Translations under genes and position numbers: made by a program
Source: Rotaria sordida
Taxonomy: Eukaryota
Assembly: GCA_905250005.1 (NCBI GenBank)
Contig: CAJNOH010000403.1
Location: forward strand, 34,708 to 98,707
Direction: 5' to 3'
Length of the DNA: 64,000 nt
Shown: piece after piece, positions 4,400 to 58,800 of the stretch
How positions within the stretch are numbered: position 1 is the first letter of the stretch
How the letters are laid out: each line of letters starts with the position of its first letter
Notes under the pieces: model-generated
The model's database searches: none
What the model was told of the DNA's origin: nothing
The model's input: only the letters and a program-made list of their open reading frames with translations

Positions 4400-5650
4400 T
4401 TCTTTTCTGGAAACGTAAGGTGTCGGCAATGCAAATTTCAAGTAAAAACTTTTTCGCTTTTTTTAACATTATGTGATAGAAAGTGAATTGCTGATCATGA
4501 AAAATTTGAAGCATGTCGTTTTTTTTCCGACAAACACATGCTTTTCAATATGTGGAAAATTTTCCTTTCCATCCTTCTTTCCAGCTTTTAAACATTCATT
4601 ATTCAGATTCAGCATCAAAATTTGAATATAGATAAGTTGTTACATCGATTCCAATCTCGACAATATTTTGATGATGACGTTTCGAATTGTGACGAGTGCA
4701 ATATTATAGGTCGATTTTATAAATCTATCTAGTTTTTTGTGTAAGTGATCAAACCAAATATTTTATCTCATTTAATTTCTTGTATCATCAGTCATAAAAG
4801 TATGAATCGCTTTTTTTTTCTTTTTCTTTCTTTGTTGAGAAAAACCATTTTTTCTGAATTTTGGAGAAAAAAACTAGAATTCTGCCTGTATTTTTCCATT
4901 TTCTTGATCAAAACTAAAATCTCCTATAATATGATTGAAATATTCGGAGTCAACGTAAAAAACTGGTTTCACTAATGTATGTTTCGAAAATTTTCATTAC
5001 TTTTCATTTTTTGATGAAAATTTCAGGGACATTTTCATCTGAAAACTGGCAAAAAGCTGAAGTCAACGAAAAAGGTTAAATTATATATAAGTTAATTTAG
5101 TTTTTTTTCTCTGATTCCGAATATGATAACATTATTGTATGAAAGCTTAGTTTTTATGAAAAAAATGAAGAAACACAGACAGAATTCTATCTATTTAGCC
5201 CAAAATGCAGAAAAAGTGATTTTTCTCAACAAGAAAGGAAAAAGAAAAAAAAGTGACTCATATTCTTATGACTGATGATACAAGGAATTAAATGAGATAA
5301 AATATTTGGTTTGATCACTTACACAAAAAACTAAACAGATTTATAAAATCGACCTATATATATTGCATCTGTCGCGATTCGAAGCGTCATCATCAAAAGA
5401 TTGTCGAGATTAGAGCCAATGTAACAGCTTATCTGTATTCAGATTTTGGTGATGAATCTAAAAAATGTATGTTTGAAAGCTGGAAAGAAGGATGGAAAGG
5501 AAAATTTTCCACATATTGAAAAGCATGTGTTTGTCGAAAAAAACGACATACTTCAAGTTTTTCGTGATCAACAGTTCACTCTCTATCAAATAATGTTTAA
5601 AAAAAGTGAAAAAAAAATTTTACTTGAAATTTGCATTGCCAGCACCTTAT
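4400..5650. repeat. Foldback F1: about 1.25 kb near-perfect long inverted repeat (hairpin), symmetry centre about 5030
   Basis: The reverse complement of 4400-4990 aligns to 5070-5650 at roughly 85-90% identity when read by eye. Example: 4741 gtaagtgatcaaaccaaatattttatctcatttaatttcttgtatcatcagtcataa versus 5262 ttatgactgatgatacaaggaattaaatgagataaaatatttggtttgatcacttac. Arms diverge beyond about 4395 and 5660. ORFs 4745..4975, 5446..5769 and 5606..5824 lie inside the arms. Confidence 0.85.
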
Positions 5651-8393
5651 TTCAATGCATTTGGTATTCAGCCTGCTCAGCAACGAAAAATCTTCTCAAT
5701 CCATCAGTTGATCATAGAAAAATCGAAGGGAAAAATGTCGCAGTGGAAATTGATCGAAAAGTACTTTAGAAAACTCCGACTTGCAAGAAATTCTGTATTG
5801 TATAGCAAAATACTAACATTCTAACAGAGATCATACAGAAGTCACGAAAAAAGAAAAACTTCATGTGCTCAAAGTCATCGTACACTAGAAACACCACTGT
5901 TTCGATATTTTTCGGTTTCGACATTTTTCTGTCTCAATATTTTTCCTTTCGATCTTTCTACTCCTAAAAAACAAGAAGCCCGTTTCATGTAGCTGCATGC
6001 TTTGCTCGAAATCATCCGTAATTTTTCACATCCTATCTCGATCGGTGATACTTATCAAGCAGTCATTAACGAATTTCGTATTTGCTATCGCAGCAATAAG
6101 CACGGACTGAGACGTATCGATGAATTCTCATGCACTTACATTCCGATCAAATCGATCTACTAGTTTATAAAAGATGTCTTTCTTTATTCACTGTTAAATA
6201 GAGTCCTGAGAATATAAAACATAATCGCTATTGTCAAGTTTCAATACATCATACAAGATGTTTATTGACAACTAGCTGAACTGTTCTCAAGGCTCAGCAA
6301 TCGGCTCACATACATATTAAGTCATAATAGAATATAATTCTTAAAACATTATTGGAAAATGTATCTTTATTTGTTTGTCCAACATATATACAGATTTAAA
6401 GCTTTTTTAATTGAAAAACATGCTATCGAAATGATAAGCACATGAACAACTATTTCAATTTTACTAAAAATCTGTGGAATGTAAAATTCTATTGGCAAAA
6501 GTTTAGTATGAAAGTCTGTTTTTATAAGCTAAGGAACAGCTAGTAAATTAGTAGACTATAGTTCACTAAAAAAATTGTGACGATACTCCTACTATAGCAT
6601 ACATTCACTCTGAAACTCCATTTATTTGAAAGTAGAGTGTAATTTCTGATGATTTGATAATTTCTTAGTGTATTTGAGTGGAGTATGCATGAAGAGTAGC
6701 GCGACACCTACATCTACACCCTTCTGATGCATCGAAACAGAAAAATAAATGGTCGACAGCATTACAAATCGAATAAGTACATTGTAAATCGATATAATGA
6801 TTGGCTCCTAATAGTATCTAATCTTCTGAATGGTTTGTCCTTAGTTGTGGCAAAAAAATTGTGATGGTTCAATAGGAGCATTACTTAACGTTGATAAAAT
6901 AAGATATAAAAATCTTTTTACTTGTCTTTTACTATTTCTTTTTTAATAGTAAACATTTGGTTCAAAGTTATGTGCTTGGTTTTTTAATTTACGCGGAAAA
7001 ATAATATTCAAAAATTTCCACCTCAAGTTTTTGATATTTTTACTTTCGACCAAAGTAGGGGTATTCAGAAGATCAGTTGAGAGTGAAGACTGGTTCTGCA
7101 GAACTATGGCTTTCTTTTAGGACAGTTAAAATGACCTATATACAACAATAGATAAATCCGCTGGTTTAAATAAATCCAAAACAAAAAAAAAAACAAATCT
7201 CAATAGCTCCTCAGTTATTGGAAAACTTTTGAAACGTATTTGATTCACTAATAAACTTTCGTGTCGATATATATAACATAACAAGTTTGGGAGATACATT
7301 TATGGCTGCAGGTAAACAACAATACAAAAAGAAAAAGTTTACCTTTCCTAAATTTATTGATTTCGTAAGTCATATTTTTCAAAGACAGTAATCAAGTAAA
7401 ACAATCCTTGTTTACCAATCGATAGCTCATTAACTTCTCCATAATTAGCATAAAGTTAATTGCCGATTAAATGTTTTCATTTTTGTTAATAATGCTATTT
7501 CTGCTGATGCTCACGCCAGTAAAAATGAGTTCATTTTGAAACATACAGGATTTTATGACTACATATATACAATTGCTCATAAATATCAAAGGAAAATTCA
7601 GCAAATATTATAAGTTTTACCTTAATCACTATTATACAAATTGTGCATAATATGTGAGAACCTTTGAGTATCAACATAAGCTTCTCTAATTATATATAAC
7701 TCTGTCATTTAAAATGTGTAAAACTTATCGTCAAAAAAAAAACAATTTAAGTACATTTCCATTCATTAAATGTTTATTATTTGCAAATACAAACAAAAGA
7801 TTCCACTATAGAACAATATCTTAATTATACTTACATATTGTTTTCATTTAAAGAGAATAAAAATTTATACTCGAACTGTACTAATTGTTTCCAAGGGCAA
7901 TTTTCATATGAATAGAACGTATAATTTTCTTTCCGATAAATTATTTAATTGAATTTATTATACACCAACAATGTTATTATCTTTCATTTTAATATGAATA
8001 CTTCAAAATAACATCACGTTCTCTTCTAATTTTCGAGTCTCTGCTAATATTTCTAATCATCACATGCCTACAACATTCTATATATGTATTGATATGTTGA
8101 AAACAATATTAAAAAATTCTGATACATGCTTTGTTTTTTCTTTTTACTTCGTTGCTTATCGTGCTTACTATCGAAAATCAAAAGCCACGAACATACATAT
8201 TAAAAAAATGACCAAGAAAAAAAAGAGAGTATAGAAAAAAAAAAGAAGACATCTGTTGCTACTTTATTTTATTAGTAGTTATATAAAAATGGCTATATGA
8301 GAAAGAAATGAAATAAGACAAAAAAGAAACGTAACAGATGACGATTTTGTTTTAGTTCTTTTAATCGGGTGTGATTGTAATGATTTAAAATAT

Positions 8394-9003: not shown

Positions 9004-9829
9004 TTAGTTTAATCGGTATTCTAAAAAATCACATTTGAATGTAAATATATCACTATAAACATAAAGTTCACTATGAACTTACTGAATCAACAAAAAAAAA
9101 GTTATGCGTGCAAATATGAAAAGACGAGGTAATGAGTGAATGAAAGAATATAGACACGTCTTGTTTTATATATATAGTGATATCTTCTATGAGAGAATAA
9201 GAGAGAGGGAGAGAGAGAAAGAAAATGAAATACCAATCGTATTGTATAGAGGCATTTTTTTTTTCTTTGTTAAAATAGAAGGAGAAAATGTACACATGTT
9301 GTGGTGGTGATATATGGTTGGATGAGCCTCGAAAGCTTTACATACATAATATCATTTATCACTAAATAGAATGAAAACAATGTACGATTTCTTATCGTCG
9401 GAGTCTCGCGGTTATGCGCCGAGGAATCTGTATCATTCATTGAATGAAAGAGAAACATAGACATCCGAATTTTTTTTCTTCGTAAACGAAATACATCAAA
9501 GCGTGAAGCACATCTGCTTCATAATAGTAATAACTATTATCATATCATAATTTATTTCCATTCATATATCGACTTACTTTTTAGCCTTTGATCAAGGTAA
9601 ATCAATCTTATAACGAATGATAACTGCATAGTTCTATTCTCTTTAATAAGGTTATTAATGAATATAAGAGAAAAAGAAATATGATATTCGTTGTTAATTT
9701 GAAAATATTTTTATTAATTATTTAATTTTGAAAAAAAAACAAACAAGTCTCTTGTTTTATTTATTTCATGATTAAAAAACATAATATAAAAATTTCAAGT
9801 TAATTATTAATATGAAAAAGTGCATATTG

Positions 9830-10480: not shown

Positions 10481-10699
10481 GCTAAAAATAAAAATTGAAA
10501 AGATTTTCTTTTTTAAAAGAAGAATCATGAGACTATCGAGTATACGAGGCATTCAATACAAAAAAAAATGTTTTCTTTTTAAGCATTCAATACGTCGATA
10601 TCTGAAACCACCAACTCCATATATTAACTTTCTATAGTCTTTCTTTGGAAAGTTAGTCAATATCTACTTTTTACCACTATCATATTCTTATTAAAAAAA

Positions 10700-11290
10700 T
10701 GCCTTGAACAAAATTACCTATCTCAATATAATATTATATTAACCAAGTTAAGTTTGATAAGGTTGGCATCAATGAAAAATGGCTCTTTCGATAGGTATAA
10801 AACGTTCATTTGATAACAATCCATCTCCTATCGTAATCAGCAACCAAAACTGAATTGAGTTATTCGACAATTTAATTCAATTCAATTCAACAGCAATCTC
10901 TTCATTAACTCTCAAACACAAGCAACAAAATTCACTTCAATATACGGTATATACTTTCTATGTCTTGCACTTACACAAACTGTATCGATCTCTTGGTATG
11001 AGAGGTCTACTACTATTCATTTCAAAGTATCATGTATGTGAACTCGGTTTCGCCCTAAATGTATCATTTATTTTTGAATATTTATTTACAGTTTTGTAGA
11101 GAATAAAAAGTTGTATCAAATATATAATATTCAGCTTGAAACTTTTTGATTCAAAATCCCCACAAGAGATAGATTGTTATAAAGTAGACATTTTAGACTC
11201 TCATCTATGGAAACATTTTGCATTCATACTAACCTTATAAAACTTGGCTCAGTTGATATTATATTATATTGAAATAGGTCATTTCGTTCA
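10700..11290. repeat. Foldback F8: about 590 bp inverted repeat, centre about 11000
   Basis: 10715 acctatctcaatataatattatattaaccaagttaagtttgataaggttggcatcaatgaaaaatgg matches the reverse complement of 11200-11275 (ggttagtatgaatgcaaaatg...ccttataaaacttggctcagttgatattatattatattgaaataggt). Confidence 0.7.
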
Positions 11291-11589
11291 GTTTTTAATT
11301 CTCTATCTTTTAGTATAATTTATAAAAAATTCGAATGATTTGTTGAAACGAGTACGATATTTATAGGAAATATTTTTTTCATAAGGACATGATAGTGATA
11401 AAAAGTCGATATTGATTAATTTTTCAAAGAAAATCTATTGGAAACTAAAATATTGGAGTTGATGTTTTCAGACATCGATGAACTGAATGCACAAAAAAAA
11501 ATTTTTTTTTTATTGAGTGCCTCGTATAACTCGGTTATCTCATGATTCCTTTCTTTATAATTTTACAAACCATATATAATGAATCATTT

Positions 11590-12218
11590 GGTTGTCGATC
11601 ACCAACCCATACGGCATGAAAATCTTGGTTACTTTCTACATATGAAAGATGTCGTTCAATATCATTTTTGTCACATGGATCTATATAATAAATAGAAACT
11701 AACTAAGAAAATTTTCATTTTAATTAAGCAATATTCTTACAATTTTGTGAATTAATTCGAAATTTAGTTTTAGCACCTGATCGTATTTCTTCAGCTTCAA
11801 CTTGTAACAAACCATTACAATCAATATCCATACAAATTGATATTTCTAATGTTTGTGAAGCAAAATTTGGTATTAAATCAGTAAGTATAAATTCACCAAG
11901 AAATATCTAAAAAAAAAAGGCAACAAAATGAATTAATATAATAATTTTTGATTGAACATATTTTAAACTAACATTATATTTTGTAAGTTTATGTTCACCA
12001 CTGAAAATGCGAATTGTAGCTGTTGTTTGATAAGCATAAGCATTTGTAAAACAAGAATCAAATTGTGTTCGAAATGGTATTGTTGTATTACGACGAATAA
12101 TTATACACATATGACCATTAATATCTTCAATACCCAAACTGAGTGGTGTAACATCAAGTAATAATAATGCTGTATCTTTTACATCATTTTTCGAAGATGA
12201 CTTGCATTTCTTTTCCAA
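11590..12218 (-). pseudogene. HSP70-family substrate-binding and lid fragment with no ATPase domain; truncated gene or pseudogene
   Basis: Three exons: 11923-12218 (MEKKCKSSSKNDVKDTALLLLDVTPLSLGIEDINGHMCIIIRRNTTIPFRTQ...IRIFSGEHKLTKYN), about 11745-11905 (IFLGEFILTDLIPNFASQTLEISICMDIDCNGLLQVEAEEIRSGAKTKFRINSQN), about 11590-11700 (DPCDKNDIERHLSYVESNQDFHAVWVGDRQPNDSL...). It aligns with the Hsp70 motifs LLLDVAPLSLGIETAGGVMT..RNTTIPTK...GER..T.DN..LG.F.L.GI.PAPRG.P.IEV.F.ID.NGIL.V.A but is divergent. Upstream DNA (12230-12900) is foldback F2 and the PARP4 stop is at 13074, so there is no room for a nucleotide-binding domain. Confidence 0.6.
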
Positions 12219-12229
12219 CCTAGAATACA

Positions 12230-12900
12230 GTCAAAGGAAGTAGCACTTATACCCCTCGCAGATTTTTTTTTCGCACAAATATTTTTTGGTTGCAGATAGT
12301 ATGAAGATGTAAAATCATCCAATCAGACCTTGGACATTTTTAGTCTTAGCAAAGACAATCAATATTTTAGAGGACGGTCATTTATATAGGAAAGTACTAG
12401 AAAATAGGGAATATTTAGAAGTTTCTGTAGTCGAAAGTTGATTTTTATGTAAAATGAGTATGGTATTCAGAATCAGCATGAAAAATTATACTAGACAGTC
12501 TATTTTTCATTGTAAAATATTTTTCATGAAAATTTGACCCATAGGGGACCACGGGGAAAAATCTCATGGATAAAAGGTTGAGGGGGAGTAGGGGTCAGAT
12601 TTTCATGGAAAATATTTTACAATAAAAAATAGACACTAGTTTAATTTTTCATGCTGATTCTGAATATCATACTCATTTTACATAAAAACCAACTTTCAAC
12701 TACCGAAACCTCTAAATACTCACTATTTTCTAGTACTTTCCTATATAAATGACCGTTCTCTAAAATATTGTTTTTTTTGCGAAGACTAAAAATGTCCAAG
12801 GTCTGGTTAGATGATTTTACATCTTCACACTACCCACAACCAAAAGATATTGAAATGAAAAGAAACCTTGCGGGAGGAGGGGTATAGCCTATGGAAAAAG
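12230..12900. repeat. Foldback F2: about 670 bp near-perfect palindrome, centre about 12562
   Basis: 12241 tacccctcgcag... versus 12875 ...gcgggaggaggggtatagc. The interior is mirror-symmetric, e.g. 12400 gggaatatttagaagtttctgtagtcgaaagttgatttttatgtaaaatgagtatg versus 12640 catactcattttacataaaaaccaactttcaactaccgaaacctctaaatactc. Centre is gaccacggggaaaaatctcatggataaaaggttgagggggagtaggggtc. Confidence 0.9.
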
Positions 12901-13073: not shown

Positions 13074-14310
13074 TTATGCAAATGATCTAAGCGTAATTCT
13101 ATCTATACATACATCAGTATACCGCATGCATGACACAGCAGATTTATGAACAACAGGTTTAGCTTCTGAAGCTGACTTGAATTGGTTTACAAATTCGGAA
13201 AATTTATCCAATTCTACTTTTCGACGCATTTGAGGAGCGCAGATACGACTAGTAGTGTGTAGTTTACTTGATTGTTCAACAGCTCTGTCACGATAAATAG
13301 ATTCCTTTTGCTGAACTGTTGAATTTGGTTTATCTGATTCTGTTTGGATTTTGTCAACATCTGATAACATTGCCGTTAAATGTAGTAAGATAGAACGAGA
13401 TGAAGATGCAGCAGTTGATTCGATGCTAGATGGTTTAGGTGTTTCACTAACATAACCGAATGATAACGGTGCTGATAGAACAGATGAAGTCGAAGGAATG
13501 TTAAATATCGATTGATTGCTAATCATTGAAGGTGCAGCATTACAAACAGTATTTTCGCCAGATCCACCGAATGAAAACAATGATCGTGACTCCGAGGATG
13601 TGGTGCTCAACGGTAATGCTTCTGTTGTTGGATGAGGAGGTGGCGACCAAGGACACATTGCCGATTGTTGTACGATAAAGTTTGGAGTCATAAAAGAAGT
13701 ATTGGTATTATAGTTACTACTACTGCTTCCAAACAATGCTGAACTAGGTGGAGGAACGGGAGGAGGCAGTGGTGGTGGTAGTCGTGAAGGTGCACCAGAA
13801 AACATTGCTGAACCGCCATATCCTCCGAGCATGGAAGGAGCATTGATGTTGTTATTGGTGTTGTAGCTAACGTTACTTCCAAATGTAAATCCATATGATG
13901 CAGGAGAAAAAACTGATGGTTGAAACCCAAAAGGAGAAGATATTGTTGAAGCCCCAAATCCTGTGGAGCCGAAAGAAGCGTTGTTGCTGACGTTGCCGCT
14001 AACGGTAGTAGTTCCGAATGGATTGGAAGCAAATGGTACACCAAAAGAAGGAAGTGGTAATGTTGCAGGTGTGGTAATGGTAGCATCATTAGAAGCTTGA
14101 TACCCTACTGGTGCATTAAATTCTGAGAACACAGGATAGGTGTTACTAGTGTTGATGGTACTGCCTGGGAACGAAAACAGTGATGTTGTACTAAAAGTCG
14201 TACTTGAGTCACTTATTTGAGCCATTTGTGGTGCGACCATTTTCTCATTTGATAAGCAACTCGTATGTGTGAAAACAGATGAATCTAATGATGTCATTTG
14301 TTGTTGTTGT

Positions 14311-14368
<58 letters not shown>

Positions 14369-14441: not shown

Positions 14442-17400
14442 AAAGAAAAGATTGATCATAATTCCTAACAAATCGTTGACATTTTAAGGATGTTCTCAAA
14501 GCATCTTCAGAAGATGATCAATATCGAAAGTTATCGATAAATATTTTATCTGAACATAGGTCTCGATGTAGAAGGAGCTAGAATTGGGTAATTTCATTCT
14601 TCTACTATCTTCATGTTTACGAAAATGTTGAACTGTAGTCAGAAAGTTGTCCGCCAAATTCTCAATTCCTTCCATATGTAAGAACTATTGAGACTCTATT
14701 TGGATACAAAAAAAACTTTATTGAAAATTTTTACCTGCTCTAGGTGAAATTTCACCACCAAGAACATTCGCATGAATAGCACTCGACTTTTCGTGAATTT
14801 GTGCCTTTTTCAGAGCGAATTTTGATAAAACTGGAGATGCTATCTGCTTTTTTGAATATTCCTTCACTTCTTGAATTGATTTTTTTGCTTTTAGAGTTTC
14901 CACTTTGTCATATGCTATGGGTTCCATCTGTTGGAAAAGAGAAGGATCAGCATCAATTTCATAAGAGTTCGCTTCTTCTTCTAGTGCTTCATCAAATGAG
15001 CATATATGACCTTCTGTTTTTTCAGAAGTAACATTCATTATTAGGTTCTCGAATTTTGTGTGCACCTCCATTGGAACTTCATAATCATCAAATAAACCAA
15101 AACTCATGCCTGCCTGACTTTCTTCACATTCTTCGTTTTGCACTGATTTAATTTCACTACATTCTAGTAGATCGTAATTCACTTAGAAAACATAGAGAAC
15201 ATGAAAATGATTAAAATAATGTTTTGAACAAAGTAAATTTACCTGCCTGGGACGACATCAAACGTAAGGAATCATCTTTTACTTCATCTAAACCGAAGTC
15301 AAATGAAAGCTTATTGTTACCCTTCATCTAGAATTAATCCAAACAATGTTTCATTTATGCTATAGAATTCACTTACAAATAGATCACCACCATCTTCGTC
15401 ACTGTAATATATTCCATCATCATCCTCAACGAGTGAATAGTTTTCCTCTTCTTCTTCTTCTTCTTCTTCTTCTTCTTCTTCCCTTTCTTCAACAGTTGCA
15501 TTTCGATGTTCTAAATCTTTTCTAATAAAAATATAATCGTACAAAACATAAATATCTCTCCATTTTCAACTTACAACATTTCAGTTCCAAGACGTATATC
15601 AATTTCATCTAGTCGTTTTTCTAATATTTTTATTTCATCAGTTGTCGCATTTTTGATTTCATTCATTAAATCTATTAATATACATTCAATATTAACTAAG
15701 AATTTTAAGAAAAATTTCATATTTACCTTTCTGCATATTTTCTTCTAATTCTCGAGCTTTTTCTTTTTGTTTAAATGTTGTTCGATATGTATTAATAATT
15801 GTTAACATTAAATCATATTTTGCATCACCACCAAAACGATATGATATATTCTGACAAAGATTTTCATATTCATTTAATAAATCAATTTTATTTGCTATTG
15901 AAGCACTATCAAATAAACGTTTTCCATTAATTAATTTATCTTTAATTATATCAATTTGTGATCGATCACCATCCCAACCAATATATGGAAGTAAATCAAT
16001 ATTATTTTCAAGCATAACATCAAGTAATCGAACACCTGTTTCAAGTGCTTGTCCATCACGTTCTTCAATAGCTACAAAACTTGTAAATGAACTCACAACA
16101 GAATATTTCATACTAAGTTCAATTAAATTTTGTTTATATTGTTTTTTAATAAGTTCATTTTCACATTCATCATTATGTAATAAACCGTTTTCATAATCTT
16201 GAATAATAGCACGAGCTGTTAAACAATGTAATATATACGTCCTCTTGTTTCAGTTATTTTATTACTAAATACAGTTGTTATATATTCTTGATTATTTATT
16301 GTTGCTGTTAATGTTGCTTTATGACAATTTTGTATAAAACGATATACAGTTAAACGCATACCGTTAAACAATGAACGAATTATTTTTGGTGCTTGACTAG
16401 TAAATTTTTCTTGTTGATCATCAATTGTTCCATGCCAATCAATGGATATATTTGTTACACATGGTTGATGAATATGTTCAAGTATTTGAAGTACTTTTGT
16501 TTTCCATCTTGAACGATAATTTGAATCAAATACAGTTATTAAACCACCACCATTTATTCCATTAGATAATTGTCTTAAATTATGTTTATTAGATATTTCA
16601 CCAATTGAACATGTAAATAAACGATCATAACGCATTGATGATCGACTTTCTAATAATATTAAAATAGATTGAAGATCATTGATATGTCCATCAGAGAGAA
16701 GAATAAATTGTCGACCGAGTTTAGATGAAGATGGTAAAAGAGAATATTGACGAAGTACAGAAAATAGATCAGTATTACCACGATGATCAAGTGAATGCTA
16801 TAATAGATATAGATTTAAATATATAAAAAAAACAAAAACCAATGGACATGATTAAAATAAAACGATACCAACCAAAATAAAATGCTTAGCTTTATCAATA
16901 TTTTCTTTTGTATTTTGTGATGAAATAGGAAAACATTCATCATTATCTAAAATAAATAAATTAATGAGAAAAAAATTAATAAAAATAAAAATATTGTTCT
17001 TGATTTACCTGATCCAAATGTAACAATATTAAAAAATATATTTTTATCATCAGTTTTCATATTTGTCAAAAATAAATGTGCTAATTGTTTTGCTTGTTGT
17101 ACATGTTTTCCATCCATAGAATTTGATACATCAATAATAAAAATAATTTCTACGTATTCATTTGAATTATTGATCATTTCAAATTTTGGATAAAATGTTA
17201 ACATACATGCTTGAGAATTTTCATCAATCAATTGATTATTAGTATTTGTATCGGATAAAACAAATGTTTCATTTAACATGCGTGGTAAATTAACACTTTT
17301 TAATGTTATGGAAAGAATAAAATCTTTTTCAAGTAAAATATTATCAACAAGTTCAATCATAGCAAGACAATCAGTTATTTTTCGACGAAGTCGATGTGTT

Positions 17401-26662: not shown

Positions 26663-27974
26663 TTTATTCCAGGAAACAAAAGAATATATATTGAAGTACC
26701 TTTTTTTTTTAAATCAACTTTGAATTTGAATCAATTAAAATGCACAAAAAAAATAAAATAAAATTAATAATAAATGTTGATCTTGTTTTTTTTTTTTAGT
26801 TTTGGTATTATTCAATTGGAAATATGAACAAGAAAATAAAATGGCAACGTTTTATTAGATTTGACAAGAGAATCTAAAGAGAATAAACAATAATCGTAAT
26901 TGACGATCTTTTGACAAAAGAAATTCCAGCTGATCCAACTTCATTATCCATATTTTACATTGGAAATGTTGAGGATCAACAGCCATCATGATTTCTATTG
27001 ACATTCATTATGCGTAGAGGTCTTTGTGCTAATTTTTTTTGATACGATATTAGCGACATCATTTATCTTAACAATAATTGAAATGAAATTATTTATTTAT
27101 TTATAATGAAAAATAGTATTATTTGAAAAAGATTAAATTATTGGTTTATTTTTTGAAAGAAGAAAAAATTATTTGATGGAAGATGAATCATCACTATGAG
27201 AGTGGTGGTTTTTTTTGTTTAAAGAATTTCGATTGGTTTTTTTGAATTTAAAGTCAATTTTTTTCAAGAATGTTAGAATTTTTGTTTCTGATGAAAGGAA
27301 AATAATGATGATTTTTATTACATCGATATTTAACAGATTTTCATTGTAAAAATCAATGTCATGTTCGATTAGAAATAATAACGAATTACTTGACATTGTT
27401 ATTGGAATGGAAGAAAACACTTATTATAATTGAATTGATGATGTTTATTAAAATATGTTTTGAATTTTCGGAAGATTGTACCGAATATGAACTTTTTATT
27501 AATATGTAAATTGATGAAGAACTTTGAATATACTTGAATCTTGTCTATGTTGATACTTAATGTCTTCTCGACTTATTTTTAAAACAATATACACAACAAA
27601 AAGACAGTATAGAATGAAGAAGAAATAGACTGATTTATATTAATCGAACTCATTTTTATTCTAGTTAACGAAAGTTTATGAAAAAAAAATAGATATGCAT
27701 AGTTTTAATATTGAAAGTTGTAAGTGAGATATTATGATATATGGATGTGTGGTGGTATGGAGTGAGTTGACAGTGATGAACGTCGACCTTTCATTAGCAA
27801 AAGAGAATGTACAATTTGATGCGAATTCATAGTGGAAATTTGATTGATCAACATTTAGGACACTTTCAAGTTTGTACTTGAGTAAGACCTTTTGAACTTC
27901 ATTAACAGATTTTTAGCTAATGCTCATTTCAAAAAAGAAAGGCAGGTGAGTATTTTTTTTTTCTTGAATAAATT

Positions 27975-46100: not shown

Positions 46101-47988
46101 ACGTCCTTCTCTCAAAAAAGTTAAAAATATCACAAAAACCGAAAAATTTTGATGAATTTTGGTTCTTATAGTTTTTGTGATACTTTTAACTTTTTAAGAG
46201 AAGTTCGTAGGACATGTGACGACTCTTCATTTTGTTCTATTTAAAAGGGTAATGTTAAAAAATAGCTTCTGGGACCTGAAAACTCCCGTGTCAGATTTTT
46301 TAGAAACCTTGCTATCATAGTTCATCTATGAAATCTTGATGTAGACTTCATTAGATAAAAAACTCCATTGATTATTAAAATCATTATCTGGATTTCAGCT
46401 GATTGCTTAATATTATAGAAAATCCGAAATACGTTGTTGTTAAACTTTTTTCCATCACCTTATGTTTAAGATTAACAAATAATTTGGTAGAAAGGTAGCA
46501 TGTGGATAATATATCATACATAATTATTAGAGATGCATGAGATCGGACCATGAGAAAAACGCTATCTGAAGCAAAAGTATAGATTGTATGTAAATATTTT
46601 ATGATTTTGAGTGAATCATCATATAAATCATATGAATCAAAACAAGTGACATTCATCGACTAAATCAATAAAACAAAAAAAGAACATCTAAGAATTGTGT
46701 AAGATTTCAACAGAATGAATTTTGAAATAGTTTTCTCTAAGTCGAAGCTAGATCAAAGTTGCCAAAGTTATAGGATAGATGAGATTCTATCTTCGAGACA
46801 AAAGTAACTCGGTCTCAGATATCTCTAGTTACATTTCGTTCTAAAAAATGTGATAACTACTCTTAAGATCTTTCCTATCAATAACACAAAGGTCTATTTA
46901 AGAATCAAGCTAAGTTCATAAAGAATTTTATTAGAAAATCTTCAAGAAACATATCAACTATAATTTATTAAATCTCAACGTATATCTTAATTGTGATTAT
47001 CCAGCAAAATAAAGTTTTACTTACCAAAAAAGTAATATCTACATCGTATGCACTTATCTTACTATTTTCTTGATTTATTATTAAATCTGTATTAAAACAA
47101 TTTGAATAAATTCATATCACTATTATTAGTCAATTTGAAACAAAAACATTAAACTATACTTGATCCCATTTTTAAATACTTTTTATTTGGATATCAACAA
47201 CTATTTCCAAACTCATCCTTAATACACAAGTATTTTCTAGGACTTTATAATTATATTGAATAGTGCAATGATCTTCTACATCCAATGAAAATACACCAAG
47301 AGTGAATAAGTTTAGAATATCATGAAAGAAAATCTAAGATGATACATATCATTACTCATCAATCTCAAATCTCATTATCTATGTCAATGATTCCGGCATC
47401 CGAATCTGTCAATTCTCAACAGGGTTTCCACCGGAAAGATGTCATTTCCGATCGGAAACAGCTCGTATTTCTTGACTTGGATTGTAGATTCTTCAACTAT
47501 TAAAATTAACACATTTAACTAAATTTCTCCTATCAAATGGAATTTTTTACAATTTTATATAAAATAAACATATATGCAAACAAAAATGAATTTCTTACAC
47601 GAATAAATAATTTTGATTGAATAAAAGCTGTTCGGATTTTATCATAAATTGGATTTGATTTCATCCATATTTGTCTATGAATAATTAAATGAATAATAAA
47701 ACTAAATTAAAATAATTAATTCTCATAATTAAAAAACTAAAAACAAAACAAATTCTAAACGAACCCAAAAATGAATGCCGTAAAAAAAAGAAACCAATAA
47801 ATTGTTCTTTGAATTCCAAAAAAACCCAAAATCAAACATAGACCACCGATAATAATAAGATGTTTAGAAATCATCGAAGGCCATTCAAAACATAAAACAA
47901 AATTAAATACCTTGTAAAATAATATTTTTTTTTTTTCTTTAGAAAACAAAAAACGAAATAATGATTTTTTCAATTGGTTAAAAGTCAT
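37192..47988 (-). CDS. Sorting nexin of the SNX13/14/19/25 class: N-terminal TM helices, PXA, RGS-like, PX, Nexin_C; more than 20 exons
   Basis: TM first exon is ORF 47755..47988 (HLIIIGGLCLILGFFGIQRTIYWFLFFTAFIFGFV). PXA exons lie at about 44340-45400 (...EFLRDIVEVLIYILLPANEFRCVPARVLLRV...). RGS-like exons lie at about 43440-44000 (LDYFLS..EFLQTLDAVGYGNFYLNAEV). PX exons are 41393..41647 and 41700-41900 (YAIYVISVFCKPLYSNNDEQRREWITYRRYSEFNDLHMTIKKRYP..LPSK). The C-terminal Nexin_C part is 39507..39845, 39952..40179 and 37192..37590 (acceptor ttttttttag|DELRHIIGSETTRRGLLRLFELLQNETLNRRFVYIVIEALLIKLF...). The 2.3 kb first intron carries hairpin F7. Confidence 0.7.
46090..46228. repeat. F7: about 140 bp hairpin with about 45 bp arms, in the first SNX intron
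   Basis: acgtccttctctcaaaaaagttaaaaatatcacaaaaacc ... gtttttgtgatacttttaactttttaagagaagttcgtaggacatgtg. Arms are near-perfect reverse complements with a loop of about 30 nt. Confidence 0.8.
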
Positions 47989-48191
47989 ACAATAATAGTA
48001 TTATAGATCGAGCTACATCCTTTCTTTTCCTAACTGTATTGGTGGCTCTCTTGAAAGCACTTTCAAATGGAAGAGTGAATAGACGAGAAAAAAAAACAAC
48101 AACAAATATTATTTGTCATACATTGCCACATATGTAATAGGTTTAAATCATTTAGATAATAGATTATCGGTTTTTTTTTTGTACAATCCGA
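47989..48191. promoter_or_regulatory. About 200 bp head-to-head intergenic region between the SNX gene (minus) and the TBC1D20 gene (plus); candidate bidirectional promoter
   Basis: It lies between the two divergent start codons and contains T-runs. No recognisable TATA box. Confidence 0.4.
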
Positions 48192-51100
48192 ATGGTAACA
48201 CTTGAAGAATTTTTTGAATCAAACATCAATTCGGATTCTGATAATGATTCAGCATTGATGGAAGATGCTCTCTCTGAAGTTATTTCATCATCAATAATAA
48301 CAAATGGTTCATCATCATTGAGTGATGATGAAAATTTTTTAATTATTTCTAAAACAAAATCTGATAGAATTAAAGAACTTTTAAATAAAAAAAATAAACG
48401 ACAATTAATTAAATATGCTAAAAAGACTGGTTTAATTAATATATTATATCGCAAACAGATATGGCCTTTAGTAATTCGTCCACCATCTTATTGCACAGTT
48501 GAATATGATAATAATAATAAATTATATTTTTGTCCAATTAATTATTATGCAGCAGGTATTCATTTTTTTTGTATTTGAATTTTTTGTTTTAATGATAAGA
48601 ATTTATATTAAAATATTAGATAAAAATCAAATTGAATCACATCGATATTATGGACAAGTTAGAATGGATGTTGAGAGAACATTAAAACGATTTCCACCGA
48701 GTATAAATTTTTTAAGGAAATAAATAAATGATTTTTCTTTTTGTTTTTTTATTTATTAAAGATTATTCTGATTCTGCTAGAATTGAATTACAAGAAGAAC
48801 TTATTATAACTGTTATTAAAATGTTAATTAAACATGATTATCTTAATTATTATCAAGTAAATTATTTAGACGAATAAAAATATTTATTAGATTTTAGTTT
48901 TTTTTTTTTTATTATTTTTCGTAGGGTTATCATGATATTTGTTTGACATTTTTAATTGTGCTCGGTGCAGATTTGTGTCTTCCATGTATTGATACAATAA
49001 CTAAATCACATTTCAAGTAAATTTTTGTTTAACATCTATAATTAAATTAAATTATTATTTAATATTGAATTTTTTTGTATTTTGTGAAAACATCTTTAAG
49101 CATAGAATTAGATCTTTGTTGACATTAAATGAAATATATTATAATTAAAAACTTTTTATGATGAATATTTTCAATAAGAGAATGTCATATATGTAAAAGT
49201 AACTAAGTAGTATCTTATAGTTCAATTCTATAGAGATTTATAGTAATAGTTTTTATGATTTAATAAGGAAATAATTTCTTATATAGGTCAACAAAACTTT
49301 GGTCCTCAGACAAAAACCTAATGCATTGTAAATCGTATTTTATTTTTTATCAAAACACAACTTGAATACATCTTTAAATCACTCTATAGTTTGTCATGGT
49401 TTTAAACTAATGGCATAATCAAGGAAAAGGGCTAATCGAGAGAACTACCCGAACGAATACCCGCCGTTTGAACTCATGTTGTGTTCACAAAGAGATCTTG
49501 ATAAGACTAGAAGAATCCTAAAAGAGTTCATACCCATGGACCTCTAAAGATGAGTTATGATCATTTTACTGAATATTCGATTAATATCCTGCAATGGGAT
49601 GAGGTACTTGAACGCGACCCAACAATTAAGGAGATCTCAACATTTCAAAATATTTTTACTTTCTCAAACTATTAAATTTATATAAAAGCATAGGAATGAA
49701 AATCAGTTCGATCATGATTAAGCAATTTATTTTACGTGACAACTGGTCACAAGAATGAAAAGCGATATTGTTTTACTAGAAAAATTTATTTTGAATAAAA
49801 ATTCATCTGCAGATATTGATAAAGGATATGACGAAGTAATTGAACACATGAAGAGGAAAATAAATAATTATAAAAAAGATGAATATGCATTATCGTGATG
49901 GAAATAGTATTCATGTATGTATCCATAATTATGACGTTGAGTACCAACACTGAGTTCCTTTCCAACATGATCAACAACAAGCAAACGTATGCTTAACGAA
50001 ATTGATCAGATATTAGAAGCAAAAAGACACCAAGTGAATCATGAGTCATTTCCTTCTTTTGTTGTGAAATTTGAGGTGATCTCTTTTTCCGTTGCTGTTT
50101 ATGGAAGAAACTAAATAGTACACTTTTTCATATAAAATAAAAGTTTGAAAACCATACTATGATTGTAAAAGTATCTGCTAGATGTCAATTAACTCCAATC
50201 TGGATTTGGTTATGAAAAGTTGTACTCATACAGGACGCTATTTTCGATCTATCATCTTTAGGGATTTACCGAAAAATCAAATAACAGAATTTCGACCTGA
50301 AATTTTGCCCATAGATAGGTTTGATGACTCTGGAAATATCCTGAAAGTTTCAACCAAAAAGAATGTTCGTTTGTCATGATATTGAATTTTCAGGTAAAGT
50401 TGATTTTTGTGGCAAACGATCATTTTTTGGAAATTCAATATCTCGACAAAAGAATATTCTTTTCGGCTGAAATTTTCAGAGTCATCAGATCTATCTATGG
50501 GCAAACTTTTGAGTCGAAATTCTGTTACTTAATTTTTCGGTAAATACTCAGAGCTGGATCGAAAAAAAACGGTCATTATTCGGCTACAGATGCACATGGA
50601 TACAAACCTTCTTAGGATTTTTCTAGTCTTATCGAGACCTCCTTGTGAACACAATATGAGCTACAATGACGCGTATTGATTCTCTCGTAAGTCACCCTAG
50701 TTAGCCTTTGTCACCTGCTCTTCTCCTTAACACAGGCTCCTACTGTGTCGCCTCATCGCTTTAAACCTCTTAAGAAACTATGTTTTAGAAGCTGCGAACA
50801 ACTAAGTTTTGTAAGTGAAAATCAAAACTTATGTCAACCTTGAAATTTGAATTCAAGTATTGAAGATTTTGAGATATTTAATTGTGTATGCATGTATATT
50901 TCCGTGATATTCTCACTAAGATAATATCTGAACTCAATAATTGGATTCAACTGTCCGATTTAAAATATATGAAGATCAAGTACACATTTACTTCAGTCGT
51001 AGAGACAGAGTTGAAAAGTATCACACGTATACTTGTGATACAAAACATTTAGTATCAATGTCCGTTTTAGATAATCATAGTAGCAGATATTTTTCGATTT

Positions 51101-52532: not shown

Positions 52533-52896
52533 TTCAGCTTGGCTTACTTTGTTTTTTATTTTCTGTTTTCATTCCCGGACTCTAGTCGCTCTGTTATATG
52601 TGAAAACTATTTTCTTGCTTCATGTGTACATAGTGTTATTTAAAAAAAATTTAAGAAACAATATTAATCGATCTATTCTTTTGTTAATATTGGATAACAA
52701 CTATTTTCTTTTGTCGCTGTCTTAATTTTATATGCATTTAATGGAAATTTTCTTTTTTTTTTTGTTTATTTAACCTCTATTTTTCTTTGTTGTTGTTAGG
52801 TCTTGCACATTGAGCCAAGAAAAATAATTAACAAAAATTATTTCTTTCTAGATGAATCTCATCTGATCTGATTTATTCATTTTCGTGTTGAAATTA

Positions 52897-55800
52897 ATGG
52901 ATACAGTGGATACTCCAAACGAAATTATTCGTGAAGAACAATCAATTGAGTTAAAAGCCGAGGATTCAACACAGAATGAATCAACAAACGGTACTTCAAA
53001 TTTAGATAAAACTGGTGAGATTTTATTTATTTATTAAAAATATGTTTTATTCTATTATTTCGATACATTTGAAGTTAGAAATGTCATAATAATAGAATTA
53101 ACATTAGCATTTATTAATGTCAAAATTAATAGTTTGATATTATTTGCATTAGGATTAATTAATGTCAAGTTGTTAGCATTAAATTAGCATTATTTTTTTA
53201 TTCTAATACATAAATTATCGACGACTAATTAGATCTCGGACATTCTAAGCTCAGAAGTTTCCAAAACTGAACAATTTTGTTCTATTATCGGAAACTCTCG
53301 ACCATGTACTACTTTTATAGGTATAGTTGAAGCCACATATGTATTAGAATTAAAAATAATGCTAAGTTAATCTTAACAGCCTGACATTAATTAATTCTAA
53401 TGTAAATAATAGCAAAGCATTAAGGTCAATTTTAATTAGGTTCGAACTGATCTAAGTCTGTTATCTCAATATTTCTGAAATGTCGACTCCTTTGTTATAT
53501 GGAAGGTGATTGTGATATTTCAGAAATTTTCAGATAACAAAGTTAGATTAATTCGAACTTAAAAACAAATATCATCATTCGACTCAATACGGTTAATAAT
53601 CCCTTTCTAGCTGCTTTTCCGAATCATTAAGATCAATTGACTCAAATCGAGGGTCTCAGGAAAAAGCTTATAACTCTCAAACGAAATAACCTAGGAATGT
53701 CAACCTTGCGTAGATCGAAAGAAAAGAAATTTTTCTATCTATTAGTTCTATTAAAAGTCTAAATCGAAAGCGCAATAGTTTCGGAATATCGTTTTCAATC
53801 AATCTCTACCAAGAACTCTTCTGATTAGTCCACTGCTGACCAATCAAATTTCGATAGACTTCGATGATCCCAGGTCTTCTCTTGTGAATGATGAAAACTT
53901 CAGGTCTCTATAATGTTTCTATCAAAAGTTATTGAAAAAAAAACATGAACAGATCTCATCTCTGATTGAATGCTGAAATCCAATAGTGACACATAACACC
54001 TGCTTTCTATCAATATCATTGAATAATTTAATAAATCTATTTTTTAATTATTTTTTCTTTAGAAACTATTCCATCCGATGTTCCAGCAAATTCTGAACAA
54101 ATAGAAATAGCTCGTCTTTCATCTGTAATCACTACGCAAACAAATGAAAAAGCTGATCTGAATGCACGTCTTATTGCATGCCAACAACATTATGAAACAC
54201 TGCTAAGTCGTCAAAAAGAAGAATATTCACGTGAAAAACAATCAACTGTTATGCGTTATGCTCAAGCTGAAAAAGCCAAATTAGATTCGGATAAACGTTG
54301 TGAAATTTTAGCAACAAAAAATCATGATTTATCAAAAGAAAAAGATAATTTACAAACAAAATTATCAGAATTTAAATTAATGAATACTAAATTACAACAA
54401 GCTTATGAAAATAAATTAACTGAATTAACAACAACAAAAAAAGAATTAGAAAAAATTAGAGAAGTAAATCAATCAATTGATGCTACTTTGAAATCAACAT
54501 TAAATCATTTAAAAGGAGAATCATTACAATTAAAAGAACAACGAGAATTAAATGAAAGATTAAAAAAAGATTTGAATGAACAACATGAACTTAATGAACA
54601 ATTAAATTTACAATGTAAACAACTCACAGAAGGTAACTAAAAGAATATATTATTAGGAAATCTAGAATTTGAGTGACATTCCTTGAGTCGTTGAATAAGA
54701 AATACAAAGTTTCATGAGATTAGGAAGAGAAAGAGTGAAATTTCTGGTTGGTTGATTATAAGACTACTCTACCTTGTTTCTGATCGAAATATTAATATCA
54801 AGTAGGTTATATGACCGACAAGATCTAAGTATCCTTTTCAATTAAAGACGAGATTCGAGCAACATTGCACTACAATTTATCAGTGGATCCCTTCTATACA
54901 ACTAATTTGTGACATTTCTGGTTGGATTGGAAATTTGACCAACAATCATTGTCCATTTAAATTTGTTTAAGTATCGTTTTTTAGCTATTTCAAAAAATCT
55001 TTTACATATATTGGATGGAAGTTGCAATAAAACTTTTCTCAAAATATCGTGAAAATATTTTTGAAAAATTATTTCCTAAAGTACGAGTCTCATCATTTAT
55101 TTCCTTCTTGTTATATTAAAAATGCGAATTCGATTCATTTTATTCTAATGAAAGACTATTCTCAAACAATGAATCCTCAAATAAGATCTTGTTGATTCCC
55201 TGATCAGCTGTTTTTTCTTTCTGTTGAAAATCAAACCCTTAAGAATATTCACGATGTACTCTGTTATTCTATGTCCATGTTTATGACAAGTTCTACTCAC
55301 TAGAAAAACCATCTTCTATGATCCAGAGCTTTTGTGCTGATATTTTTCTCATAGGTAGGACTCAGTAAGACTAGATGAAGCCTAATAAGATAACGGTCCA
55401 TGGAACTTTTTTCCCGAGTTATGAGCATTTTACTAGGTTTACGACTTATTACAAGAGATTTACTGAAAACTCAAAGTATAGAGTGTCGATCTGAAATTTT
55501 TCTCATACATAAATCTCATGACTTTTATAGCGGCCTAAATATCACAACCAAAACGAGTGCTTCTTTCTTGAAACAATGTGTTTTCATGAAAAGTCGATTT
55601 TCATGACATATGGTATGATGAGAGTGTTCCTTGAAGATCCGATGCCTCGAGAAAGAAGCACTCATTTTGATTGTGATACTTCAGTCGTTATAAAGATTAT
55701 GGAATCTATATGAAGGAAAATTTGAGATCGAAACTCTATACTTTAAGTCTTCAGTAATCTCTTGTAATAAGTAATAAACTCAATAAAAGACTCATAACTC

Positions 55801-58800
55801 GAAAAGAAAGATCTATGGGCGATTATCTTAGTAGACCTTTTCTAGTCTTAGTAGGTCCTATTTATGAGAAAAATATCAGTGCAGAAACTCAGAATCACTT
55901 GGAACGGTTCCCTCGTCAGTCATTTTTTTATTCATGTGATCCCCCGCTAGTAATATATACCTGCCATATAAGCTGCACTCACTGAACACTTCGATAATCG
56001 ATCATTTCTAGTTAAATGGAAGTAAACTTTTTACATGATGAAATCTATTGATCAATCATTCATTTCAGAAAGTTTTCCTTTCAACATAATTTCGTTCAGC
56101 TGACAAGAAAAACGGTTTCTGCGTACATGCAGCTTTTCCCAATCGTACAGAATCTACCTATGTGTGCCAATATGAGCTGGTGAAATCTTTTTTGTTTAGG
56201 AATTCCAATTAAGAAAAGTTTTCCTTGTAGCCAATAAAAGTAAAAGCTCTGTATACGACCTCTGTGATTTACGTATAGATAGAAAGTATCGAAACAACTT
56301 CTTGTTTTTTTAATAAATATATAATCTGTTAGTTTTTGGAGTGGAAACTGTTTATAATACTTGATGATTAATAAATATTACCTTTTTATATGAAGTAAAT
56401 CGATTTCTCTTTCACTTTCTTCGAATATACGAATGAAAAAAGAGAATCCGCCTTTTCCTTTATTTTGATAGTAGGATAAATTTTTCGCTCTAGCAGCAGA
56501 TTCTGCATCTCTGCGAGTCGCATAGATATATTCGTTCTGATTTTGAGAGTAAAGTAAATACAAGTAAAACAAAAAACGCACTCTGAGGTGAGCATAACCT
56601 AAATAAACTCAGAATTTAAGTGTTTGCCACATGTCAAGACGGAAGCTTTCAGGATAAGATTTTGAAGTAGCGAGTTAGCTGACCTCGTTACTTCTCACAT
56701 CCTCATACTCCGCTTCAAACCTATCTTCCATCTAACCCTTCACCCCCTCACCTTCGCTGTCATATATATTGTGATACATGTACACTCATAACTATATGTA
56801 TTGAGTCTAAAAACCTAGAATTTGAGATTTTTCTATTATGTGTTGTATGATTATGTTAGTACAAGTATGATTGATGAAAACATGCACTAGTAAATGACAG
56901 TACAAATTATATTTGTATTTACGCATCTTAGGCCAATGAAAATTGTTCGATGCGAAAAATAGTCAAAAAATTTAGAATAAGAGAACAAAAGCTTTCAGCT
57001 GCACCAGAAATAAAAGAATGTCAGTTCATGAATTATCTGTAGACCTTCTAATTGTGTAGTAGCACCAAAAGTACAGTGGACGCCGATCATTTTCCAGGAT
57101 ATTTTTAAACGACAGAAAAAGTCCTGGACTCGGGTTTGAAAATCTTGAATCTGATGAGCTCTAGTCATCCAAGAAATGTATAGGATGTGCTAATCATCGA
57201 ATACAAAACGCCGGAAAAAAAAGTTTCGTATCTTCGGGACAACTATTCAATTCCTCTCAGAAAATTTCATTGAGAGTATCAAAGCACGATTTGACCGAGT
57301 TCGAAAATTTTGGACTCGACAGGCTCTAATTATCAGCGATCAATTTTCGCTTCCCCCATATCTTAGACTTCGTCTGTTGTTAATAGAGATAATAAGTTCA
57401 TTATTATATATATATAAAGAATTGGTTTGTTTTAGCTGCTCAAGCAATACCAACTGATGATGAACGTGCACAAGCATTTGATACATTAACTCATGAACAT
57501 AATGCTCTTAGAATAAAATTAACAAATATTCAAGATGAAAATAAATTATTTCGTGAAAAACTTAAATCATCTGATGAAGATCGTTTAGCATTAGAAAATG
57601 TTATTGAAAATTTTCGTCAAAATACTTTACGTGAAAAAGAATCAACAAAAAAATTATATGATGATTTATTAGCTGCACGTGGACAAGATTCTGTTGAAAT
57701 ATCACGATTAAGACAAATTGAACAACTTTATAATCAAACATTAGCTGATAATGCAGATTTAAGACAATTACTTGAAAAAGAACATCAATTACTTGAATTA
57801 ACACAAAAATTAACAGAAAAAAATTCTATTTTACAAAGTGATTATGAACAACTTCAAATATTATGTAAACAAACATCTGTAGATTTTGAAAATTTAAAAA
57901 AAATTAATGAAGAACAAAAAAATCAAATATTAAAATTAGAAAATATTGAAAAATCCTTAAGAGATCAATTAAAAGAATTAGATGAAAAATATCAAACATT
58001 AAATAAATCATATGAACACAGTGTTAAACAATATGATGATAGTCTTATTGAAATTCAAACATTGAAAAAGAAACATCAAGCTAATACAAAAGATTTAATT
58101 AAACAATTACAACAATTACAAAAGCCAAAACTTACAAACCATAATCATGAACAATTACCTATTCCACTTACTAGGTAAACAATTCTTTTTTTTCAAATTG
58201 TAATTAAAGACAACCAAATCTATTCAATTTTTCTATAAAAATTTATTTCTTAAATATTTTAATTGATCAACACATCATCTATACATTTTGAAAGATCAAA
58301 GTTATTTTATTTCAATGTAAAATATCGTTCATTATATTTTATTTGAATCTTTATACATTCCTATATACTTGAACAATCCAGAGATATTGATCGATGCTGA
58401 AAATCTATTGCTGTCGTGATGAGATTCAAAACAAAATTTTTCAAATCTCATTGATGTGACTATACTGAACATTAAATTCTTGCTGCTAATCGATGAGATT
58501 CCTCGAATGTCAGAGTGTTACATTTCTGGATATTAAAATTCCGTACGAATAGCCGCCCCGATCAACATCTCTGAAAGCGTTGTATGTGTTGACTGAATTC
58601 AATAGAAGTTTTTAAAGCTATACTATTCACTAAATGAATTGTATTTCAGAAAGAGTTAAGGTAAAATCTATCACTAATAATCTGATATAAAATTCAATCG
58701 TTCGAATGAATCATATTATTTTTTCGAAAGGTTATAAAAGTATTTAATCACAGATTACCTATTGAAAAACACGGTAAATACAATAGGGCGAATCGTTTAT

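Follow-up and report, generated by a model that had tools for sequence, protein, structure and literature searches.

Long foldback repeats in introns and gene spacers of a bdelloid rotifer contig are probably fossil non-autonomous DNA transposons of several unrelated families

What are the many long inverted repeats that punctuate the introns and spacers of contig CAJNOH010000403.1 (assembly GCA_905250005.1, deposited as Rotaria sordida), and how did they come to be there? The window considered here, a stretch of 64,000 nucleotides (positions 34,708 to 98,707 of the contig) with a G+C content of 28%, had been described in a first-pass annotation, made from the letters alone, as carrying nine unrelated palindromes, for which very different explanations were entertained: non-autonomous transposons of the miniature inverted-repeat transposable element (MITE) or foldback type, precursors of hairpin RNA (hpRNA) or endogenous small interfering RNA (siRNA), or errors of assembly. 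Our analyses favour the first of these options with good confidence, and the foldbacks are most probably fossil non-autonomous DNA transposons, comparable to the Stowaway and PALTA MITEs, that represent several unrelated families, most or all of them from the Tc1/mariner superfamily. The evidence for this option consists of insertions recognised by comparison with orthologous loci, TA flanks, mariner- or Tc1-like termini, the occurrence of one family (F6) in multiple copies and multiple species, and a dispersed copy of another element (F1).

Inverted repeats were located with a repeat finder and with a gapped minus-strand self-comparison of the window by blastn. All nine repeats of the first-pass annotation were recovered, and four more were added to them (X25, X35, X44 and X61 in table 1); the window contains at least 13 local foldbacks, which together make up 9,018 nt or 14.1% of its sequence. 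There are 17 local inverted matches in the real window, the best of them scoring 1208 bits, as opposed to none or one, and never more than 45 bits, in each of 20 dinucleotide-preserving shuffles. The elements measure 59-1234 nt and their arms 60-620 nt, the arms usually covering the whole element. The description of the palindromes as near-perfect has to be abandoned, as arm alignments reveal an identity of only 76-87% (the arms of an element thus differ by 13-24%) in addition to many indels. Some of the extents and units likewise had to be redrawn: positions 46090-46228, originally given for F7, are only the central 140 nt of the actual element, F8 reaches outward beyond the inner arms to which it had been confined, F4 is nested in a larger element (F4o), and F9 consists of two adjacent palindromes. 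Structure prediction with ViennaRNA bears out the claim that there is no long unpaired loop for F1, F2, F3, F4, F5, F7 and F9b, whose hairpins are all but complete, 74-88% of the bases pairing across the midline. The claim does not apply to F6, where ~525 nt separate the arms at the level of blastn and the partly unpaired middle leaves 35% of bases paired across the midline; X35 and the outer element F4o are built in the same ends-plus-middle fashion, with 19-38% of bases paired in the three elements of this type.

Each foldback is unique within the window, and no sequence common to the bodies of different foldbacks was found there, the ends being excepted. As had been noticed before, they carry no transposase open reading frames (ORFs), and we found no other coding capacity, the only open frames inside the foldbacks being short and of low complexity. 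For eight foldbacks, the longest open frames were joined into a chimeric query meant to reveal other copies that had been called as genes by mistake; it retrieved nothing from the protein database at E <= 0.01, which is an uninformative outcome. Neither a search of Rfam at gathering thresholds nor a tRNA scan returned any match, and the foldbacks are therefore not known structured RNAs or elements of the SINE (short interspersed nuclear element) type.

The status of the foldbacks as insertions follows from a comparison with related rotifers. Judging from its coding sequences, the host is a bdelloid close to but distinct from Rotaria sp. Silwood1, and no flatworm, let alone the parasitic one that had been suspected: the named relatives of the exon encoding the VIT/vWA part of a PARP4-like protein (16947-17696) come from Rotaria and Didymodactylos species, the best named match of a RabGAP-TBC exon (48192-48578) is a protein of Rotaria sp. 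Silwood1 with 84% amino-acid identity, and a contig of the same rotifer (L021, assembly GCA_905332295.1) is collinear with positions 34866-49878 of the window at 77-85% nucleotide identity. The loci compared were taken from contigs of related rotifers and are designated L001-L005 (PARP4-like gene and surroundings) and L021-L025 (TBC gene and surroundings). The site of F8 measures 1066 nt in the window and 22 nt in L002, where it lies within a short GT..AG intron. The intron with F3 has a length of ~830 nt in L005 and ~55 nt in L004, and is absent from L002 and L003, whereas the intron housing X25 is reduced to ~50 nt in L003 and L002. The spacer behind the stop codon of the PARP4-like gene spans 907 nt in the window as against 223-243 nt in L001 and L002, and F2 is the difference. 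On the other side of the window, the X44 site comprises 305 nt, compared with 2 nt in L022 (X44 is absent from L023, too), the RabGAP-TBC intron with F4 and F4o occupies 2.1 kb versus ~205 nt in L022, the region around F9 (~52940-54061) amounts to 1142 nt versus 46 nt in L022, which is without the intron, and 359 nt in L023, where the intron is present, and the intron with F5 (54646-57422) is matched by one of 450 nt in L022. The introns housing F3, X25, F4 and F9 are, like that of F5, of the GT..AG type. F7 is missing from both L022 and L023. No long inverted repeats were found in the relatives L002, L022 and L023, and where the empty site is cleanly bounded, as in the two cases of F8 in L002 and X44 in L022, both arms are lacking from it, which argues against local sequence having been duplicated there in inverted orientation.

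Four elements can be followed into Rotaria sp. Silwood1. X44 occurs in L021 at the orthologous position (6258-6942), X35 at the orthologous site (655-1050), albeit without its middle part, F7 is represented by an orthologous left arm with the right arm missing, and the left part of F4o is likewise found at the orthologous position. It follows from this distribution that X35, X44, F7 and F4o were inserted before the split from Silwood1 and after the split from the lineages of L022 and L023. The arms of these four elements are 74-82% identical, a value near the between-species identity of non-coding sequence, as expected of neutral decay since insertion.

The ends of the elements point to the superfamily concerned. 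Six of them (F1, F2, F6, X44, F7 and F9b) have TA on both sides, and four of these six bear motifs resembling mariner or Tc1 ends, namely TAAGGTG (F1 and F7), TTAGGTT (F9b) and TACAGTG (X44), the last of which we take to be a Tc1-type end. The heptamer TAAGGTG occurs three times on the two strands of the 64 kb, and each occurrence forms the extreme end of an element, of F1 on either side and of F7 on the right (read inward). The statement that the foldbacks share no sequence, true of their bodies, thus does not extend to their ends, with the recurrent TA flanks and with TAAGGTG confined to the termini of F1 and F7. Published mariner ends that may be set beside these are TCAGGTG of Mos1 (TCAGGTGTACAAG) and TTAGGTTGGTGCAAAAGTAATTG / TTAGGTTGGTGCAAAAGTAATTGCGG of Hsmar1 (PMC9062482). 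As far as the sequences can tell, the terminal likeness to Tc1/mariner is one of short motifs only.

Table 1. Foldback elements of the 64-kb window. Positions are those of the window; slashes separate flanking from element sequence.
Element	Position	Size and structure	Flanks and ends	Location
F1	4416-5649	1234 nt, whole-length foldback; arms 86.6% identical; 88% paired	GTA/AGGTG...CACCT/TAT
F8	10516-11556	1041 nt; outer arms 10516-10700 / 11372-11556, inner arms 10705-10827 / 11166-11290	TA on one side only	Intron of the gene downstream of PARP4 (annotation of L002: HSP70 match nearby)
F2	12250-12884	635 nt; arms 86% identical	ATA/CCCCTC...GAGGGG/TAT	Spacer after the stop codon of the PARP4-like gene
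F3	18145-18779	635 nt; arms 77% identical		1.79-kb intron of the PARP4-like gene (19882 to 18098, minus strand)
X25	25612-25744	133-nt palindrome		Intron of 630 nt
F6	27917-28770	854 nt; arms 27917-28084 / 28609-28770	(C)TA/ATGYYCAT ends: CTA/ATGCTC...GGACAT/TAG
X35	35523-36739	218-nt inverted arms, ~790 nt between them; no ORF
X44	44021-44343	323 nt	Tc1-like, at 44036-44328: ATA/CAGTGG...TTACTG/TAT
F7	45829-46462	634 nt; arms 82% identical	CTA/ATGTGG...CACCT/TAT	Span of a sorting-nexin gene
F4o	49456-50677	Outer element; 112-nt inverted ends 49456-49567 / 50566-50677; no ORFs		Intron of the RabGAP-TBC gene
F4	50241-50565	325-nt foldback		Nested in F4o
F9	53113-53562	Two abutting palindromes, F9a (53113-53436) and F9b (53436-53562)	F9b: TTA/GGTTCG...CGAACT/TAA
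F5	55319-55897	579 nt; arms 78% identical	TA on one side only	GT..AG intron of 2.78 kb
X61	61674-61732	59-nt palindrome, from self-blastn only; membership with the other foldbacks uncertain

Mobility is further indicated, and in the case of F6 directly tested, by copies outside the window. A degenerate 30-nt pattern derived from the conserved arm core of F6 identified members of this family on 15 metagenome contigs of the Joint Genome Institute (L006-L020), where they form foldbacks of ~0.5-0.9 kb; the same pattern had no match in viral contigs, as expected. A related inverted pair is also present in L001, in the very intron that holds F8 in the window. Full copies of the family (L010, 1227-2161, and L020, 1320-2228) possess arms of 325 nt that are 80-87% identical. 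Seven family ends from six contigs read TA/CTTAGGGCATACCAAAAGTAGTG (TA/CTTAGGG), and the flanking sequences are unrelated right from the TA. The family end, TACTTAGGGCATACCAAAAGTAGTG, has TTAGG and CAAAAGTA in common with that of Hsmar1 (TTAGGG..CCAAAAGTAGTG compared with TTAGGTT... of the latter). In the F6 copy of the window, each arm is reduced to its inner ~180 nt, and the ends, TA/ATGYYCATTYCA, are its own; the element at 891-1478 of L006 has the same short-type TA/ATG ends with TA on both sides, and the symmetric "truncation" of F6 therefore represents a subfamily that was itself mobilised. As for F1, a copy of its arm with 71-74% identity resides on the unrelated contig L019 (680-1038).

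A single transposase-like element was seen, in one of the related rotifers. L005 contains an element of 1.3 kb (11147-12465) with 99-nt inverted ends TA/TAACCTACGATGCAAAAGTAACTGCCG, TA flanks and an intact ORF of 300 amino acids. The ORF exhibits weak similarity (E ~0.1) to a Tc3 DNA-binding domain and a Sleeping Beauty catalytic domain among PDB sequences, and only weak helix-turn-helix matches in Pfam. We interpret it from these sequence features as probably an autonomous Tc1/mariner element. Its end shares TGCAAAAGTAAYTGC with the end of Hsmar1 and differs from the ends of the window elements. It is located just downstream of the stop codon of the PARP4-like gene, about where the window has F2.

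Several observations weigh against the interpretation of the foldbacks as Tc1/mariner-derived MITEs. The dinucleotide TA is its own reverse complement and accounts for 9.6% of all dinucleotides in the window, and only three of 14 elements end in TA if the boundary is placed strictly at the outermost base of the inverted repeat; to obtain TA, the boundary must be moved in by 1 nt in F6 and F9b, and by 17 nt in X44. In F3, F4, F4o, F5, F8, F9a, X25 and X35, TA is seen on one side at most; these elements may come from other superfamilies or may have lost the duplication by decay, which amounts to at least 10% per arm. A search for target duplications of 3-9 nt, with one mismatch allowed, at the elements without two-sided TA disclosed nothing convincing. 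F3, F4, F5, F8, F9a, X25 and X35 are presumed members of multi-copy MITE families. The empty sites located in diverged introns are not alignable base by base, and at those of F2 and X44 the exact pre-insertion sequence is not fixed by the alignment, as the spacers are too diverged or AT-rich. No autonomous element with ends matching those of the window elements was found in the window or the contigs compared. Multiple copies are documented for F6 and, weakly, for F1 (one extra copy), and for no other family; an exact search of the metagenome contigs with a 23-nt end motif of F1 gave no match, a null result that is no evidence for a single copy given that the metagenome collection probably lacks this species.

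The foldbacks might alternatively have been formed where they stand, as immobile products of double-strand-break repair by folding back or template switching, in the course of which local sequence was duplicated in inverted orientation; such breaks are common in bdelloids that undergo desiccation. Such an origin would suit the uniqueness of each foldback in the window and the fact that for most of them no second copy was encountered in the data searched, and bdelloids are indeed known for the repair of many double-strand breaks (PMC5916493). Nevertheless, we regard it as improbable: no arm is found at the clean empty sites of F8 and X44, the extra length of the spacer corresponds to the whole of F2, copies of F6 and F1 are situated at unrelated loci in other species, and neither the TA flanks nor the shared TAAGGTG, TTAGGT and TACAGTG ends would be expected from random breaks.

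About as improbable is the idea that the foldbacks are functional hpRNA or endogenous siRNA loci, kept for long double-stranded RNA (dsRNA) that is processed by Dicer and guides silencing. It is true that all of them form long hairpins, the seven most complete ones to the extent described above, and that most are intronic and hence transcribed with their host genes. MITE hairpins do give rise to small RNAs elsewhere, an example being the human miR-548 family derived from MADE1. In addition, the gene families encoding Argonaute (~21 genes) and RNA-dependent RNA polymerase (RdRP; ~39 genes) are greatly expanded in bdelloids (PMC7943196). However, selection on the hairpin of a transcript should enrich mismatches compatible with G:U pairing on the transcribed strand, and this enrichment is not seen: summed over all elements, arm mismatches comprise 176 of the G:U type and 198 of the A:C type, with no single element biased, and the two strands have similar folding energies. 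The arms have decayed to their present identity and accumulated indels, the F7 hairpin is not conserved in Silwood1, where the orthologue has lost its right arm, X35 is built differently in that rotifer, the elements are absent from the other relatives, and no Rfam family is matched. The lack of a strand bias, together with the decay and the losses in orthologues, speaks for neutral decay and not for maintenance of structure, although the intronic hairpins may yield siRNAs as a by-product.

Finally, the notion that the palindromes are artefacts of assembly or amplification, i.e. chimeric fold-back reads or collapsed inverted duplications, can practically be dismissed. Single-animal rotifer libraries are often whole-genome amplified, a procedure that makes inverted chimeras, and A. 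ricciae did not bear out the large palindromes found earlier in the assembly of A. vaga (PMC5916493). Yet artefacts would have identical arms in place of the diverged, indel-bearing ones observed; the Silwood1 assembly, an independent one, has X35, X44, F7 and F4o in matching places, and foldbacks of the F6 family were assembled from several metagenomes independently.

Returning to the MITE interpretation, the kind of element it implies is already known, and the novelty lies in the host, a bdelloid, and in the intron and spacer context. The window elements agree with Tc7 of Caenorhabditis elegans in being non-coding, 0.1-1.2 kb long and nearly all hairpin, in their TA flanks and Tc1/mariner-like ends, and in coexisting as many unrelated families. 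The same features connect them with PALTA1/2/4_CE, CeleTc2 and CeleTc5 of that nematode (PMC3814204), which differ from them in the host; the window copies, moreover, share no body sequence with the nematode elements, are old and decayed and, wherever the context is resolved, occupy introns or spacers between genes. MITEs that are foldbacks over their whole length and duplicate TA are indeed well established, with Mirza and Hairpin as further examples beside the PALTA and CeleTc elements (Yang et al. 2013, PMC3814204), and Stowaway MITEs always duplicate TA (PMC3814204). The first-pass annotation was right in stating that the foldbacks are not typical of a single transposon family. They appear to represent several, as is the case for the PALTA elements of C. 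elegans and the Stowaway-like MITEs of Aedes aegypti, the latter comprising 56 families of which few have similar ends (PMC3814204). With such precedents, the lack of a single family poses no difficulty for the MITE reading, and many unrelated hairpins at high density can be understood as a mark of a genome with many MITE families.

Other known elements were compared as well. Stowaway-like MITEs, which occur in plants as well as in A. aegypti, and the human MADE1, which is derived from Hsmar1, resemble the window elements in the TA target duplication, mariner-type termini, hairpin formation and the existence of many families with different ends, but are mostly 80-300 nt long with short inverted ends, unlike the long arms, usually extending over the whole element, in the window. 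Elements of the Drosophila Foldback (FB) type, likewise able to fold back on long inverted arms and non-coding in most copies, were considered and rejected. The arms of FB elements are made of tandem sub-repeats, and their insertion generates 9-bp duplications; Tandem Repeats Finder detected no tandem sub-repeats in any of the window arms, and no 9-bp direct repeats flank the window elements, even with one mismatch.

A further candidate, introner-like elements, was suggested by the occurrence of short non-autonomous DNA elements in introns whose length varies between related species. Such elements create introns, whereas the introns with F3, X25, F8, F4 and F5 exist at the same splice junctions, at lengths of 50-450 nt, in the relatives L004, L003, L002 and L022, and the candidate was rejected on this ground. 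By this comparison, the window elements enlarged old introns and did not create them. The foldbacks lie within most of the window regions that are longer than in the relatives, and do not cover all of the extra length. F5 represents only 579 nt of its 2.78-kb intron, which is the one with a length of 450 nt in L022, and the stretch 529-8391 comprises 7.9 kb in the window and 1.1 kb in L002, F1 covering only 1.2 kb of it. The additional DNA in these two places may consist of further repeats in a decayed state or of a gene missing from L002.

The mode of spread that we envisage for the MITEs would be as follows. A transposase of the mariner or Tc1 type, supplied in trans, would bind the terminal 20-30 nt of an element, excise it and reinsert it at a TA, which would thereby be duplicated. 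The mobilising partners would be mariner/Tc1 elements with ends starting TAAGGTG..., TACTTAGGGCATACCAAAAGTAGTG or TACAGTGG... The palindromic body would have been present already in the master copy of each family, and probably originated by template switching or fold-back repair of half an element, an origin also put forward for hairpin MITEs elsewhere; for MITEs with long arms or hairpin structure, repair by template switching has been described as a route (PMC3814204). In the lineage of the present rotifer, the elements would have entered typical introns of 50 nt and short spacers, where they were presumably tolerated, the regions concerned growing to 0.6-2.8 kb, and would have undergone neutral decay after insertion until the arms of each pair had reached their present divergence of 13-24%.

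Some additional observations were made on the repeats and their surroundings. The intron downstream of PARP4 that holds F8 in the window contains different foldbacks in L001 (8850-9935), namely a deletion derivative of the F6 family and a 180-nt palindrome (9532-9711), which points to repeated independent insertion into this intron or preferential survival there. Positions 400-3200 of contig L019 are packed with foldback debris, including an inverted pair (403-465 / 629-691), the F1-like solo arm (680-1038), a palindrome (1093-1222) and a solo arm of the F6 family (2862-3164), and unrelated palindromes are present on other metagenome contigs (L006, 398-629; L013, 1026-1125; L017, 200-485); the high density of hairpins is thus not peculiar to the window. 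Within the window, two weak dispersed matches, an inverted one between 7071-7151 and 19487-19573 (77% over 87 nt) and a direct one between 4138-4188 and 18151-18201 (78% over 51 nt), the latter linking the left terminus of F3 with a site 230 nt upstream of F1, perhaps represent additional repeat families in the form of solo ends or fragments. The arm end of the F6 family contains a conserved motif, (C/A)AG/GTGAGTATTTTTTGAATAA (27945-27960 and 28727-28742 in the window, and the arms in L006-L020), that fits the animal consensus for 5' splice sites; its variants GTGAGT and GTAAGT retain this consensus in many copies. The resemblance may be fortuitous or may affect the splicing of host introns. 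In the PARP4-like gene, the low-complexity last exon includes a (TGTTGC)n array (14299-14368) encoding a run of ~23 glutamines, and aligns poorly with its counterparts in the relatives.

Bdelloid rotifers serve as the standard test of what becomes of transposons without sex. Surveys of their genomes have reported 2.4-7.3% of classified transposons within an overall repetitive fraction of 19-45%, the repeats being mostly simple or "unclassified", and less than 1% of the unclassified ones being called MITEs (PMC7943196). For Rotaria, a content of 22-28% in ab initio repeats of undetermined nature and a second class of long introns have been described (PMC5916493). It is conceivable, although we put this forward only tentatively and would sooner bet against it, that TA-flanked palindromic mariner-type MITEs constitute much of these "unclassified repeats", are the cause of the long-intron class, and, as long hairpins transcribed all the time with the expressed genes whose introns contain them, provide a standing supply of dsRNA for the RdRP and Argonaute machinery. 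The interest of the finding is modest unless the pattern is genome-wide or the elements prove to be productive sources of small RNA. If it did hold throughout the genome, the load of DNA transposons in Rotaria would have been underestimated, the growth of introns and spacers would have a simple cause, and many intronic sources of dsRNA would have been identified.

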